A stretch of DNA of 64,000 nt from the sequence record PQ471516.1. One strand, written 5' to 3'. This DNA is from Escherichia phage Turkey5. Below, piece after piece: positions 42,724 to 58,420 of the stretch. Positions within the stretch are counted from its first letter, which is position 1. Every line of letters starts with the position of its first letter. Both the position numbers and the translations under genes were made by a program. Below the pieces are notes generated by a model. That model saw only the letters and a program-made list of their open reading frames with translations, was not told the origin of the DNA and ran no database searches.

Positions 42724-43929
42724 TTATATACCACGACTGGGTATTTGATATAATTGGAATTTAGTGTAGTAATCAGAAACTGTCGTCCCTGCTGCTTGTG
42801 GGATATAGCCACTCAAATACACATCCCCTTGATTATCCATATACACTGTTGTACATTCACTTGAACAGAATAACTCGGTGTTAGATACTTTAGGAGCATC
42901 AACTGGTGTTACAAATGTAGTACTTGATGTTGTATTACCGCGACCGAGCTTACCATACGTGTTTATACCACACATATAAAGTGAATCGGCAGTTTTAACC
43001 GTAAGCCCACCATATGTTAATGAATTTGATTTCATTTCCATATCATCTGATATTGGTAGAGTGGAGATAGTGGATAATACTGTCCAAGAATTAGCGGATG
43101 AACCATTACCCAAGTTACCATCGGACTGAATCCCACTTGCACGAACTGTATATGTATTATTCGTGTTGTGTTTATATACAACCCATGATGCACTCCCACC
43201 GAGTTCATAATGTATAACAGTATTGTTGGCGAATGCACCCATTTGTGTCCATACTCTAATGTTAGTTGCATCATTACTTATACCAAGAGAACCCCATGTG
43301 TTTTGACCAGTGACCCAAAGTGTTTTATCAATTTTTTGCACAATCACTGCACTTGAACCTGTTTTAACACTATCCACATTCGTATTAATTGACGTAAAAG
43401 TTGATAATCTTGTGGTTGTGTTATTACCAAAATATCCCTGTGTATTCGCCCCCATTCCATATAGCGTACCATTTTCAAGTAAAACAAAAATACCCTCACC
43501 TACAAGTTGAATGTCCTTAATTTGGGACAATTGTGTAGCATTGAATACTGATGTAAAATATGAAGTACAATCAGTATAAGTACTGGCAGTACTTAAACCT
43601 GCACCAATAGCTTTACCAACCCCACTATAATAAAATTTATTATCTTCAGTTTGGATTAAATTAAAAGTACCTTGGGCTGTTCTGAAACGTTTTACATTTT
43701 GGTATATTAAAGTCCATTCTTTTACTTTCGCATTATGTACACCATTTCCGAATCCATAGTTTTGTGAAGTAGTTCCACCTATACCCATTAAGTCTCCATT
43801 TTTATATAATAGTAAGAGTGCTGTCGCTGGAATTACTGACGCACTATAACCATTGTACATAAAGATTTCTTTCACTTCAGGAACTTTCATTTTATTAGCG
43901 TACTTAACCATTCTTGTAAAAGGTAACAT
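42724..43929 (-). CDS. RCC1-like beta-propeller protein with conserved MLPF leader (array member 1)
   Basis: N-terminus MLPFTRMVKYAN; RCC1-type motifs GINTYGKLGRGN, GANTQGYFGNN. Confidence 0.75.
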   Translation of the reverse strand: MLPFTRMVKYANKMKVPEVKEIFMYNGYSASVIPATALLLLYKNGDLMGIGGTTSQNYGFGNGVHNAKVKEWTLIYQNVKRFRTAQGTFNLIQTEDNKFYYSGVGKAIGAGLSTASTYTDCTSYFTSVFNATQLSQIKDIQLVGEGIFVLLENGTLYGMGANTQGYFGNNTTTRLSTFTSINTNVDSVKTGSSAVIVQKIDKTLWVTGQNTWGSLGISNDATNIRVWTQMGAFANNTVIHYELGGSASWVVYKHNTNNTYTVRASGIQSDGNLGNGSSANSWTVLSTISTLPISDDMEMKSNSLTYGGLTVKTADSLYMCGINTYGKLGRGNTTSSTTFVTPVDAPKVSNTELFCSSECTTVYMDNQGDVYLSGYIPQAAGTTVSDYYTKFQLYQIPSRGI

Positions 43930-44001
43930 AAAATCCTCCTTTATTCATTATACTATATTTAGCCAAAAAGGAAAAGCCAGTACTTGAGTACTGGCATTAT
44001 A

Positions 44002-45345
44002 TTATTGTAAAGGTATTTCAGTTAAGGTGCTATATTGTGTTCCGTTATATATACCCCTCCAGTATAATTTACCTTCAGTACTAATAACTAATAAACCATA
44101 TGTTGTAAACCCTAGAGTTCCTCCGACATACATAGCATCTTTTATTCTAATACCAATGTCTTCATATGTAAACTCTGATACTTCACCAGCATTCCACGCT
44201 GGACTGTAATAATAATCAGTATAAACACCATGTGCTTTATATAGGGACGTCAATCCAGGTTCAAAAATTACAGTTCCGCAGTAGTTCATTCTTATTTTAG
44301 TACTGGATGAAGTTGGTATATTACCAAAAATATTATCTTTTAACCCAGTAGTTAGAACGTTGAAACCACCACCAATGGAGTTAACGTTATTCACGCCACT
44401 TAGACTCATACCAACGTTGTATCCCATGCAATACACACTACTGCTACCATTCCAGTAAGAAAAACCGCCGCCACGACCACAACGATATAATTGTGAATTT
44501 GAACAGTACATCATACCTTCGTTTGATGCGTCATAGTCGTCTGCTGTTCCAATTGTAGCTACAGTAGTCCAAGTTTTAATTACTTGGTTTGCACTAGCTG
44601 GTGTTTGTATGCCATATCTGATATTATATCCCTTACCGACTATGGTCCCATCTAATAATTTGGCATACAGTACTGGTCTAGCCCCATTATAATAAACGTT
44701 ATTATGTGACATATCAATTGTACTTCGTAATGAAACTGCTTTTTGTGTCAATTGGTTATCTTTAGTAAAAGATGAAAAGTAGTAATCTGCTGTGGAGTTG
44801 TTTATTAAACCCTGAAAGGACTGACCCATATACCAGACTTCTCCGTTTGAGTTCAATGCTGCCAAAATACAACTATATTTGGATGTGTACCCAGTATTAG
44901 TGCCTGGACCTTTATCATACCCACCACTGAATACCATATCAACGACATCACCAACGCTAGTGAAATATGACGAAACATCGATGAATCCAGATGTTAAAAA
45001 TGGTGCAGTCGTCATCCCTGTATTTGTGAATATTCCATTTGCATATACACCACAAAAATTATACGAACCATCAATATCCTGTACTATGATACCATTAGAA
45101 AGTAACCAAAAGTTTTTTACATTTTTACGAACCAATTCAACACCTGCACCATTATTAGGAGTTATTCCAAATGTAATTGCTTTAGTTGTGCCCATGCCAT
45201 ATAAATTCCCATTGGTTGCTAATATTGCACCAAGCCAGTTTCCACCTCCATTACTATTACGACCCATACCAATGGAATCGAATTTCTTTACAGTTGGAGC
45301 TTCTACTGTATTCCCATAATCAAATAATCTAACAAAAGGTAACAT
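44002..45345 (-). CDS. Gly/Asn-rich beta-rich protein with conserved MLPF leader (array member 2, divergent body)
   Basis: N-terminus MLPFVRLFDYGN; 447 aa; no clear RCC1 motif seen. Confidence 0.65.
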   Translation of the reverse strand: MLPFVRLFDYGNTVEAPTVKKFDSIGMGRNSNGGGNWLGAILATNGNLYGMGTTKAITFGITPNNGAGVELVRKNVKNFWLLSNGIIVQDIDGSYNFCGVYANGIFTNTGMTTAPFLTSGFIDVSSYFTSVGDVVDMVFSGGYDKGPGTNTGYTSKYSCILAALNSNGEVWYMGQSFQGLINNSTADYYFSSFTKDNQLTQKAVSLRSTIDMSHNNVYYNGARPVLYAKLLDGTIVGKGYNIRYGIQTPASANQVIKTWTTVATIGTADDYDASNEGMMYCSNSQLYRCGRGGGFSYWNGSSSVYCMGYNVGMSLSGVNNVNSIGGGFNVLTTGLKDNIFGNIPTSSSTKIRMNYCGTVIFEPGLTSLYKAHGVYTDYYYSPAWNAGEVSEFTYEDIGIRIKDAMYVGGTLGFTTYGLLVISTEGKLYWRGIYNGTQYSTLTEIPLQ

Positions 45346-57208: not shown

Positions 57209-57217
57209 AATTCCCTC

Positions 57218-58420
57218 CTATTGTTGCCATAACTGCGTTGGCATTAATGTTAGTGTAGTAATACTATAAGTGCCATCAGGCAATCTACCACCATTACCAT
57301 TCCAGCCACCACATGCATATAATTTATAATCTTTAGTAATTATTATGGTTCTGCTCCAATCTTTAGATGCCATAAGAACATTGTCATAACCACCACTTAT
57401 TGCACTAAGATTAAAAATATTCCAGGTTCTAACTAATGTATTAGTTCCATTACCTTCTTGACCATATGAGTTAGCACCACTACTTCTAACATATGATGGG
57501 TATTGTGCCATAGGTGAACCAATTGATGAAGTTCCCATATTACTTGGACAAATAAAATTACTGTACTTACTTACATCAACCGTGACCGATGTGTTCCTAA
57601 TTGGTGTTAGCTGATTTACAGATGTAGTCGTACCATTACCAGCTTCTCCTGTATTGTTAACCCCGCTATAATATACAGGCCCACCAGTAGTAAACCACCA
57701 AGTAACATTGTATGTAGCACTAATATGTTCTACATCACTAATCACATATTTGTTCAAATATATCATAGAACTACCACCACAACCACTTTCACCGAAGTTA
57801 TCCTTACCACAAAACCATGCCTGTTTATTTGATTTAATATAGTGCGTTCCTTGTAATGAACATGCCATATCAATAACTTCACCCATATTAGTCATAACTG
57901 TTAGTGTAGGTATGGAATTTTGATTACCAGACCCACATTCACCATTAGTATTTTTTCCACACGCAATTACTCTATTATCGGTTAATAATATTCTAGTACT
58001 TTCACCTATATATACACTCTTGATCATATTAGCCATGACGCCAATTTTATTAAATGAAGAAGTAACATCAGTCCATGTTCTCAAATAACCACCAACAGGT
58101 GTTGCATCTCCATAATCAGAAAATGCAGCCACCGACCCAGTGTAGTATATTTTATTATCCAAATCAATCATCAATGAACCATGAACACCAAGCCAATAGG
58201 CTGCACAGTTCCTTGCAAGTACTGTAAATGACGAAACTGCTGCTGAATTCCCAAGACCCAATTGAGACAAGTTATTACTACCATAACCATATAAAGTATT
58301 AGTTGGGCTATGTAGATACATACAGTTTGTATAATGTTGTTGTAAAACATTTGAGAACTCTATTGGTTCTGGCCCTGGTGCAATATTCGCGTACTTAACC
58401 ATTCTAGCAAAAGGTAACAT
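57218..58420 (-). CDS. RCC1-like beta-propeller protein with MLPF leader (array member 13)
   Basis: MLPFARMVKYAN; motifs GSNNLSQLGLGN, GKNTNGECGSGN, GANSYGQEGNG. Confidence 0.8.
   Translation of the reverse strand: MLPFARMVKYANIAPGPEPIEFSNVLQQHYTNCMYLHSPTNTLYGYGSNNLSQLGLGNSAAVSSFTVLARNCAAYWLGVHGSLMIDLDNKIYYTGSVAAFSDYGDATPVGGYLRTWTDVTSSFNKIGVMANMIKSVYIGESTRILLTDNRVIACGKNTNGECGSGNQNSIPTLTVMTNMGEVIDMACSLQGTHYIKSNKQAWFCGKDNFGESGCGGSSMIYLNKYVISDVEHISATYNVTWWFTTGGPVYYSGVNNTGEAGNGTTTSVNQLTPIRNTSVTVDVSKYSNFICPSNMGTSSIGSPMAQYPSYVRSSGANSYGQEGNGTNTLVRTWNIFNLSAISGGYDNVLMASKDWSRTIIITKDYKLYACGGWNGNGGRLPDGTYSITTLTLMPTQLWQQ

Follow-up and report, generated by a model that had tools for sequence, protein, structure and literature searches.

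Why do thirteen neighbouring phage genes with widely divergent bodies all begin with the same dozen residues? The question is raised by positions 42724-58420, minus strand, of a 64,000-nucleotide (nt) stretch of Escherichia phage Turkey5 (PQ471516.1), an Asteriusvirus-like jumbo coliphage; this whole 64-kb stretch is called the window here. A listing of open reading frames (ORFs) and a six-frame motif scan agree with the first-pass annotation of the window, coordinates included, in placing 13 consecutive genes there, each starting MLPF[VAT]R[LM][FV][DK]Y[GA]N. We number the genes m01 to m13 along the minus strand and call the shared N-terminus the leader. The leader is likely to be a virion-incorporation signal of some kind. 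Our preferred reading goes further: it would be a docking peptide, retained on the protein, by which interchangeable accessory adhesins of a lectin-like kind are attached to the exterior of the virion. To this statement as a whole we give a probability of about 0.5.

A constant leader on divergent bodies

The six-frame scan of the window for LPFxRxxxY[GAS]N gave 13 matches, all on the minus strand and one at the start of each array gene, with none in the rest of the window. Two leader classes are present among them, nine copies of MLPFVR[LM]FDYGN and four of MLPF[AT]RMVKY[GA]N. Over residues 1-12 the window members share a mean pairwise identity of 81% (minimum 58%), versus 28% (maximum 38%) for their bodies, taken from residue 26 to the end. 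An alignment of 45 RCC1-type members from 10 phages has only five invariant columns: M1, L2, P3, F4 and G202. The constancy of the leader against the divergence of the bodies, as originally described, is thus confirmed.

The ATG of MLPF is the true start; a Shine-Dalgarno sequence, AAGGAGG, sits 5-8 nt 5' of it. Mechanically derived ORFs overrun this start at 52740-53927 (MNKGGI-MLPF), 55131-56045, 46607-47887 and 49030-50175 (all minus strand). Overlong ORFs such as 52740-53927, which reads 'MNKGGIMLPF', arise because a conserved upstream cassette holds an in-frame ATG (ATGAATAAAGGAGG). Gene callers may set starts 5-6 codons early (43 codons for 46607-47887), hiding the common N-terminus.

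All members lie on the minus strand. The first, m01 (57218..58420), is an RCC1-like propeller of 400 amino acids (aa) with leader MLPFARMVKYAN ('VK' class). It is followed after 9 nt by m02 (56099..57208), an RCC1-like protein of 369 aa with leader MLPFVRLFDYGN ('FD' class) and no upstream cassette. The leader MLPFVRLFDYGN also heads the Kelch propeller m03 (55131..56027, 298 aa) and the RCC1-like proteins m04 (53979..55118, 379 aa, again without the cassette), m05 (52740..53909, 389 aa), m06 (51490..52668, 392 aa) and m09 (47829..49019, 396 aa), the last of which has an AlphaFold model of a 7-bladed propeller. It is found as well on m12 (44002..45345, 447 aa), a divergent RCC1-like member that is likewise without the cassette. 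The remaining members are RCC1-like: m07 (50236..51417, 393 aa) and m08 (49030..50160, 376 aa) start with MLPFVRMFDYGN, m10 (46607..47758, 383 aa) and m11 (45356..46535) with MLPFARMVKYGN, and m13 (42724..43929, 401 aa) with MLPFTRMVKYAN; m11 contains a +1 frame break and has a corrected product of 392 aa.

Profile searches returned the RCC1 and Kelch families that had been expected. Pfam RCC1, RCC1_2 or WD40_RLD matches occur in 11 members, counting the short 45741-46535 gene of m11. The Pfam gathering score of RCC1, RCC1_2 or both is attained by 8 of the 13 members; matches to WD40_RLD, seen in 11 members at E-values of 3e-8 to 2e-31, all stay under its 150-bit cut-off, and m02, m06 and m11 have sub-threshold Pfam matches only. 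The Kelch assignment of m03 (55131-56027) comes from PF24681 (E 1e-35; 123.6 bits against a cut-off of 50), with Kelch_1, 2, 3, 4 and 6 above their cut-offs too and a match to phrog_12615. The gene at 44002-45345 (m12) had been said to show neither repeat type. This holds for Pfam, where m12 has no match, and not beyond it: m12 is a divergent RCC1-like member because it matches phrog_4219 ('regulator of chromosome condensation') at E 8e-11 over residues 1-440 and scores 71 bits in a leave-one-out comparison with a family hidden Markov model (HMM) built without it. Domain searches detected no beta-helix or depolymerase domains in leader-bearing bodies. A word-indexed protein search with m09 returned close orthologs only (9 proteins), and an exhaustive profile search with the 45-member alignment gave 161,060 matches, the top 150 of which are all multi-RCC1 giants of 1,200-7,200 aa and uninformative on the leader.

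The leader across phages, folds and virions

At its simplest, the common N-terminus could have no function in the protein and be a by-product of a duplicated 5' cassette, kept uniform by gene conversion at the DNA level. Nine of the 13 window genes do carry a near-identical upstream terminator-promoter-Shine-Dalgarno cassette, the first 12 nt (ATGTTACCTTTT) are identical in 13/13 window copies, and leader variants are homogenised within genomes, the pattern of concerted evolution. However, four window genes lie directly behind the previous gene without the cassette and still keep the leader.

Comparison of the locus with related phages, which the first-pass annotation had proposed, found the leader conserved in several genera. 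In the fetched related-phage loci and IMG/VR contigs, M[LI]PF opens 156 distinct ORFs with a length of 150 aa or more, which are spread over several genera of related jumbo phages; 138 of the 156 fit M-[LI]-P-F-x-x-[ILMV]-x-x-Y-G-N and 18 have the shortened form MLPFPIISNTN. Counted in the fetched stretches, leader copies number 13 in this window, 8-9 in JNE01, 14 in ECO103 4-12-1 and 12 in phAPEC6. Further copies were found in EJP2 (12), Salmonella 7t3 (14), Erwinia Hallingskeid (10), Xanthomonas XbC2 (11), Serratia BF (9), Pectobacterium CBB (at least 9), Yersinia Yen9-03 (5) and Cronobacter GAP32 (3), and the leader is also present in Yersinia Yen9-04 and in uncultivated jumbo contigs. The closest record to the window is JNE01, with 96% identity over 61% of a 24-kb stretch; PBECO4, 121Q and phAPEC6 are farther off. 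Distant phages have lineage-specific flavours of the leader, namely MIPFARIL.YGN, MIPFARMIQYGN and MLPFPQLVQYGN. A degenerate leader DNA pattern gave true clusters in IMG/VR only in contigs of 348-378 kb. The one single match in a smaller contig that was checked falls on an internal Met of a high-GC major capsid protein and was rejected as chance; we assume the same for the other single matches, about 40 being expected by our estimate.

Across 90 distinct leader DNA sequences, Pro3 is invariant as a residue and varied as a codon (CCA 53, CCT 33, CCC 2, CCG 2), and the codons of Leu2 and Phe4 vary synonymously too. That the residues are kept through synonymous changes counts against a by-product of the 5' region, as does the presence of the leader in phages of Xanthomonas, Erwinia, Yersinia, Serratia, Salmonella, Cronobacter and Pectobacterium with different upstream sequences. 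The bodies behind the leader are non-homologous and comprise RCC1, Kelch, an RCC1+Kelch fusion (about 670-690 aa), Laminin_G_3/ConA-like domains, phrog_6011 'virion structural protein' and unclassified proteins of 168-285 aa; CBB has the leader family and no RCC1 members. What is conserved is the leader peptide itself, and this holds on unrelated folds and in different genera. Neither observation that the first-pass annotation had named as fatal to its proposal was made: RCC1 and Kelch matches exist, and the N-terminus is conserved in related phages.

Many propellers, RCC1 included, close their ring with an N-terminal strand, and the leader might be such a 'velcro' strand and hence part of the fold. 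The AlphaFold model of m09 (predicted local distance difference test (pLDDT) 89.5, predicted template-modelling score (pTM) 0.88) instead puts the first strand of a seven-bladed propeller at residue 20, with no secondary structure before it and a mean pLDDT of 53 over residues 1-10, so that the modelling check suggested with the first-pass annotation yielded the expected propeller behind an unstructured leader. In the model of GAP32 gp002 (pLDDT 85.7) a ConA-like jelly roll begins at residue 16, and residues 1-3 and 8-12 are below 50. The leader is predicted to lie outside the fold in both models. It also heads jelly rolls, which are not propellers, and is separated from the body by a proline-rich linker (17% proline in residues 13-20 of the 156 ORFs versus 2.7% in their bodies). 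The unrelated folds, the synonymous codons, the cassette-less genes and the unstructured leader of the models therefore lead us to reject both accounts, the 5' by-product as very improbable and the velcro strand as more improbable still.

Foldseek neighbours of the m09 model are UVR8, RPGR, HERC1/2 and RCC1 (E-values down to 1e-18, target-normalised template-modelling scores mostly 0.6-0.79). Those of the GAP32 gp002 jelly roll are botulinum neurotoxin/NTNH domains, the arabinanase carbohydrate-binding domain 4, neurexin LNS domains, a trans-sialidase lectin domain and a cyanophage tailspike. Propellers of the Kelch and RCC1 types serve generally as platforms for ligand binding.

Published virion proteomes contain many of the leader proteins. 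The phAPEC6 virion proteome includes gp003, 005, 006, 007, 009 and 010 (Table 1, PMC7247149), and by sizes and coordinates these six proteins map to leader ORFs, 6 of the 12 in that phage; their coverage is 3-17%, versus 70-75% for abundant virion proteins (PMC7247149). In CBB, the proteins CBB_536, 537, 548, 549, 551, 552 and 553 were detected in virions with 2-8 peptides each (PMC5259590). All seven bear the leader (7 of the 9 leader proteins) and have Kelch, Laminin_G_3 or other bodies. GAP32 gp001 (PMC5259590) and W70_106 (PMC11370258) are virion proteins by mass spectrometry, and CB7_37 is recorded as an 'MS/MS confirmed' (tandem mass spectrometry) virion protein. The leader correlates with virion presence whatever the fold, a further point against a by-product. 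The original suggestion that a constant N-terminal peptide acts as a targeting or attachment signal is therefore well supported by folds, models, codons, genera and virion presence.

Part of this is known. Publications already cover the multi-copy RCC1 family and its occurrence in virions (PMC5259590, PMC7247149, PMC11370258): the GAP32 structural protein gp001 was listed with homologs in 121Q (121Q_234-248) and PBECO4 (PMC5259590), and the phAPEC6 paper reported eleven RCC1 copies and speculated that they order DNA or form an inner body (PMC7247149), a 'DNA condensation' label that was repeated later (PMC11370258, PMC7760394). These paralogs (121Q_234-248, PBECO4, phAPEC6 gp001-010, GAP32 gp001) are the same family at the same locus. 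The published accounts differ from ours in describing RCC1 paralogs with a presumed DNA role, the leader not being noted. In the papers that we searched we found no mention of the common N-terminal peptide, its non-RCC1 folds or its retention in virions. Three things appear to be undescribed: a leader-defined superfamily of several folds and genera, leader retention, and a second leader found in parallel, which is presented below. The statement in the first-pass annotation that this is not a described phage system accordingly fails for the RCC1 family and its virion presence, and stands for the common leader.

RCC1 proper functions in Ran guanine-nucleotide exchange and in association with chromatin or DNA; to our knowledge, Ran is absent from bacteria. 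If the array members were 'DNA condensation' or inner-body proteins, as annotated and as suggested for phAPEC6, they would organise the packaged genome. The RCC1 domain name, the presence in virions and the published suggestion with its repetitions speak for this, but the name was transferred from eukaryotic RCC1, with no phage experiment behind it. Further, the window proteins are neutral or acidic rather than basic (isoelectric point (pI) 5.0-8.6, lysine plus arginine about 6%), Kelch and lectin-like domains, which have no DNA link, occur behind this leader at the same locus, and CBB has the leader family without any RCC1. By a rough estimate, an inner body of 91 x 18 nm needs hundreds of 40-kDa copies, to be set against the 3-17% coverage in phAPEC6. 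We consider a genome-organising role highly unlikely.

A proposed docking peptide and its main rival

The first-pass annotation had offered two hypotheses for the leader, a packaging signal analogous to the capsid-targeting sequence (CTS) of T4 internal proteins and an anchor peptide for interchangeable receptor-binding proteins. The T4 CTS, a propeptide of 10-19 residues, is cleaved off basic internal proteins by gp21 and suffices to load foreign proteins into the particle (PMC9026906). The likeness to IPI, IPII, IPIII and Alt of T4 lies in about 10 conserved N-terminal residues, diverse bodies and a hyperplastic locus (PMC9026906, PMC3012670). Leader residues from 7 or 10 onward are, however, retained in mature CBB virion proteins: virion peptide LLQYGNK corresponds to leader residues 7-13 of CBB_553, LFEYANVIIPPNYK to residues 7-20 of CBB_536 and YANVIVEYATK to residues 10-20 of CBB_548. 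The positions given in the CBB peptide table differ by 3, 4 and 8 residues from those counted from MLPF. Because these peptides come from virions, the leader, with residues 1-6 unobserved, is not removed on maturation as the T4 CTS is. No conserved protease site, Glu or cleavage motif was found after the leader, and the cargo differs as well, consisting of neutral or acidic binding domains of 20-75 kDa. The retained peptides, the lack of a protease site and the non-basic proteins weaken the T4 analogy, and by comparison with known systems the anchor peptide seems to fit better.

A version of the T4 analogy that allows for retention is the main rival to external docking. The leader could be an uncleaved capsid-targeting signal that loads a library of binders into the head, to be ejected with the DNA against host defences like T4 IPI*. 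T4 internal-protein loci share the architecture of a conserved N-terminal peptide on otherwise diverse bodies (PMC3012670, PMC9026906), and capsid targeting in T4 persists when the CTS is uncleavable (PMC9026906). In favour, too, are a hyperplastic locus with horizontal exchange, the setting of the array among early-type genes, a promoter cassette that is not late-type, the low abundance of each member in phAPEC6 virions and the capacity of propellers to bind proteins well. Against it stand not only the retention of the leader from residue 7 or 10 on and the missing protease motif, but also the non-basic composition given above and the need for 40-kDa propellers and lectin jelly rolls to unfold for passage through the tail tube. 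The ConA/LamG and toxin-receptor-binding-like folds are typical of extracellular recognition, MIPF relatives are located in a tail-fibre module, and the same body families occur under another leader in Vequintavirinae. On balance we hold an ejected-binder role to be unlikely, though a serious contender.

External docking has closer precedents. In K1E/K1-5/SP6, KP32/KP34 and K11, secondary receptor-binding proteins are attached through short N-terminal peptides of 7-11 residues or more that are specific to the lineage, and such docking peptides were inferred for the related jumbo phages K64-1 and RaK2 (PMC6872550); the peptide is needed for incorporation (PMC6872550, PMC13352976), and its docking role has been experimentally validated (PMC13352976). 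As in those systems, a short group-specific N-terminal peptide is found here on divergent virion proteins encoded side by side, and horizontal exchange affects the bodies, the peptide remaining tied to the scaffold. The cargo is different: docking-peptide systems carry trimeric beta-helix depolymerases or tailspikes on T4gp10-like branching domains, whereas the present proteins are single-domain propellers or jelly rolls of 20-45 kDa in a much higher copy number of 5-14 per genome. Known docking peptides have no sequence similarity to MLPF...YGN. By analogy, the leader would be a variant of the known docking-peptide principle. In the tailspike arrays of K64-1 (fetched locus L064, 24894-49772), five proteins start M-x-N-x-L-x-Q-P-K-G-S-x-S-K/R-E/Y-T-N/S and three tailspike/fibre proteins start M-S-L-x-N/Q-L-x-x-S-N. 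These shared N-termini are probably the docking peptides described by Latka et al.; a resemblance to MLPF was considered and rejected, the sequences being unrelated, and no flanking genes shared between the K64-1 tailspike cluster and the MLPF array were seen.

Among better-known particles, the N-terminal tail motif FNPVYPY of the adenovirus fibre binds the penton base, another short peptide that docks variable receptor-binding heads; adenovirus differs in being a eukaryotic virus with a trimeric fibre and no sequence relation. Beta-propellers are used at the tail periphery for host recognition by the receptor-binding protein of Staphylococcus aureus phages phi11/80alpha and by phiKZ gp131. 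Those propellers are domains of larger oligomeric baseplate proteins, not free-standing ones with a 12-residue leader.

The exchange of bodies behind a resident leader can be seen in m09. Its ortholog in phAPEC6 (phAPEC6_6063) is 98-100% identical in nucleotide sequence from nt 97 on, but the identity falls to 87% over nt 37-96, 83% in the leader and 32% (unrelated) upstream, with a mosaic junction at about nt 60-100. A body so nearly identical behind a diverged leader indicates that bodies are swapped behind the resident leader. Clustering of the bodies of six Asteriusvirus arrays, 8-14 genes in size, gave about 28 ortholog groups, and in these arrays the leader class tracks the genome and not the ortholog group: the same group has VR[LM]FDYGN in the window, JNE01 and ECO103 versus [AG]RM[VM][KN]YGN in 121Q and phAPEC6. 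The two coexisting leader classes differ at four linked positions, V5/[LM]7/F8/D9 versus [AGT]5/M7/V8/K9, with a charge reversal included. Their coexistence may reflect two docking sites or ongoing gene conversion.

A second common leader, MxEMLxLG (M-x-E-M-L-x-L/G-G), precedes the same body families in Vequintavirinae and in the Serratia jumbo phage PCH45. It is found on the RCC1 proteins W70_237-239 (L056, 9543-13041), which are virion proteins by published mass spectrometry, and on ConA-like/phrog_6011 proteins, namely CR3_255 (L058, 4995-5645), GAP31_108 (L059, 2953-3603), 4MG gp182 (L060, 2953-3603) and PBES02_0096; further members are GAP31_106 (L059, 4159-4770) and the PCH45 protein (L062, 2971-3633). 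A leader matched to the scaffold, combined with bodies that are traded, is the pattern expected of an N-terminal adaptor with horizontally exchanged distal domains. CB7_37 and W70_106, which have the MIPF leader, are encoded directly downstream of a tail-fibre gene.

Docked external adhesins are favoured because of the ligand-binding folds, the adjacency of MIPF members to tail-fibre genes and the docking-peptide precedents. We infer a docking mechanism, an external location and an adhesin role of the following kind. The leader, M-[LI]-P-F-x-x-[ILM]-x-x-Y-G-N with its proline-rich linker, would be a modular virion-incorporation peptide that is kept on the protein. Extending free from the globular binding domain, it would dock on a common site of the particle, probably by strand addition, so that one phage scaffold could carry a changeable set of 5-14 different heads. 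These heads would be ligand-binding folds, RCC1-like and Kelch propellers here and ConA/LamG jelly rolls in relatives. New ones would be gained by recombination just 3' of the leader, which stays matched to the resident scaffold. The tail fibres or the 'hair' network of phAPEC6 and CBB may be the site at which the heads are displayed.

Several observations weigh against this picture. Coverage of the phAPEC6 members in virions is low, with 1-4 peptides per member, and the CBB leader peptides start after R6 or K9, which leaves room for a loss of MLPFxR. Searches of the PDB by sequence and by fold found no solved phage structure with a homolog and so give no particle location. Receptor or glycan binding is read from fold class alone, and propellers bind proteins equally readily; the bodies, moreover, are not trimeric fibres or tailspikes like the receptor-binding proteins known to be docked. 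The tail-fibre adjacency is limited to the diverged MIPF relatives in Vequintavirinae, and small non-structural genes surround the jumbo-phage arrays. The capsid, scaffold and baseplate genes of phAPEC6 carry a T4-like late motif, TATAAATA, which the array lacks, having its own promoter-like cassette instead; judged by these sequence motifs, late co-expression of the array with the structural genes is unsupported.

Retained docking peptides on external adhesins could be one instance of something more general, an idea that we put forward tentatively. Rak2-like jumbo phages might possess a 'plug' system, paralleled in Vequintavirinae by one with a second tag, in which a retained 12-residue peptide suffices to mount any small binding domain, a fast-turning library of 5-14 heads forms a mixed, evolvable adhesin coat, the two leader classes (..R[LM]FDYGN and ..RMVKYGN) address two sites, and one member is made in two lengths by a programmed +1 frameshift.

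The leader matters for annotation. 'DNA condensation protein' or 'regulator of chromosome condensation', an uninformative and probably wrong label copied through dozens of jumbo-phage genomes, would give way to a model open to testing, that of a superfamily of modular virion proteins defined by the leader. Such a superfamily unites RCC1, Kelch, LamG and hypothetical proteins that domain searches scatter into one functional class, and the leader predicts virion components from sequence alone. It also points to accessory structures, the 'hairs' of phAPEC6 and CBB having no assigned genes. If the leader were sufficient for incorporation, it could serve as a 12-20-residue display tag for very large phages and as a means of engineering host range, a use to which the docking peptides of Klebsiella podophages have already been put.

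Expression signals, the m11 frame break and neighbouring genes

Each regulatory unit of the array consists of a hairpin, GCCAGTACT..AGTACTGGC, with a T-run, followed by the array-specific 28-nt cassette TTAAATATAGTATAATGAATAAAGGAGG, which combines a promoter-like motif and a Shine-Dalgarno sequence. The cassette lies at 43935..43962 on the minus strand, with further minus-strand copies at 46541-46568, 47763-47790, 51423-51450, 52674-52701, 53914-53941 and 56032-56059. Five window copies are identical and two more have one mismatch; diverged versions precede m08 and m01. The intergenic terminator-like hairpin, (A/T)GCCAGTACTnnnnAGTACTGGC plus a T-run, is found at 47800..47825 and again at 42696-42720, 43976-43995, 46578-46603, 50204-50231, 51460-51485, 52714-52733, 53954-53972 and 56070-56095, all on the minus strand. 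Terminator-like sites number 24 versus 7.5 expected, and a sigma-70 consensus scan was uninformative (59 sites versus 89 expected). The 15-nt core of the cassette, AAATATAGTATAATG, is unchanged upstream of nine phAPEC6 array genes, although the synonymous divergence (dS) of the coding sequences is 0.5-0.7. It was found in arrays only, with 31 listed copies across four fetched arrays and 0 in a 50-kb structural region of phAPEC6.

The first-pass annotation had counted one array gene, m11, as disrupted. Its 264-aa zero-frame gene (45741-46535) and a downstream RCC1 fragment (to 45356) are split by a +1 frame break, which occurs at the same position in phAPEC6 (locus L001, 10640-11830) and 121Q (L006, around 1140-2339). 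The ratio of nonsynonymous to synonymous divergence (dN/dS) is 0.18 upstream of the break and 0.19 for the 127 downstream +1-frame codons, with dS of 0.54-0.70. Because the break is conserved and both halves are under equal purifying selection, m11 is not a decaying pseudogene, contrary to that description. Removal of one C gives a 392-aa protein that aligns to positions 1-377 of the 379-position family profile, and skipping the C in ..GTA GTG C GGA CAA TTA GGT.. restores the canonical G-x4-GQLGNG repeat; the phAPEC6 counterpart reads ..AAT TCA C GGA CAA TTA GGA... Past the break, a ribosome in the zero frame meets two rare codons, CGG and AGG, before a stop, and no homopolymer run that would permit transcriptional slippage was found at the break. 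The DNA across the site is ...GTAGTGCGGACAATTAGGTAA..., and the predicted frameshift junction is ...YGVGAQVVGQLGNGITTNTNK in this phage and ...YGVGSQNSGQLGNGVLSNTNK in phAPEC6 and 121Q. The ortholog of the short product, phAPEC6 gp007, is in the virion proteome (PMC7247149). A programmed +1 frameshift that yields a short and a long m11 isoform is a reasonable hypothesis and would make the break a candidate for such recoding in a phage structural gene.

The window contains no tail module. A DenV-type pyrimidine dimer DNA glycosylase (PF03013, E 1e-15) is encoded near the array at 34453-34887 on the plus strand, and denV and thioredoxin-type genes also lie near the array in phAPEC6, XbC2, EJP2 and Yen9-03; the recurrence of this neighbourhood indicates that the position of the array is conserved across genera. 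Two runs of back-to-back ORFs of 96-125 aa lie on the plus strand at 30238-32636 and 38680-41846. Some ORFs of these runs (40723-41447) are hydrophobic, with a composition like that of membrane proteins, and CBB and GAP32 contain corresponding runs that carry the annotation of putative membrane-protein paralogs.

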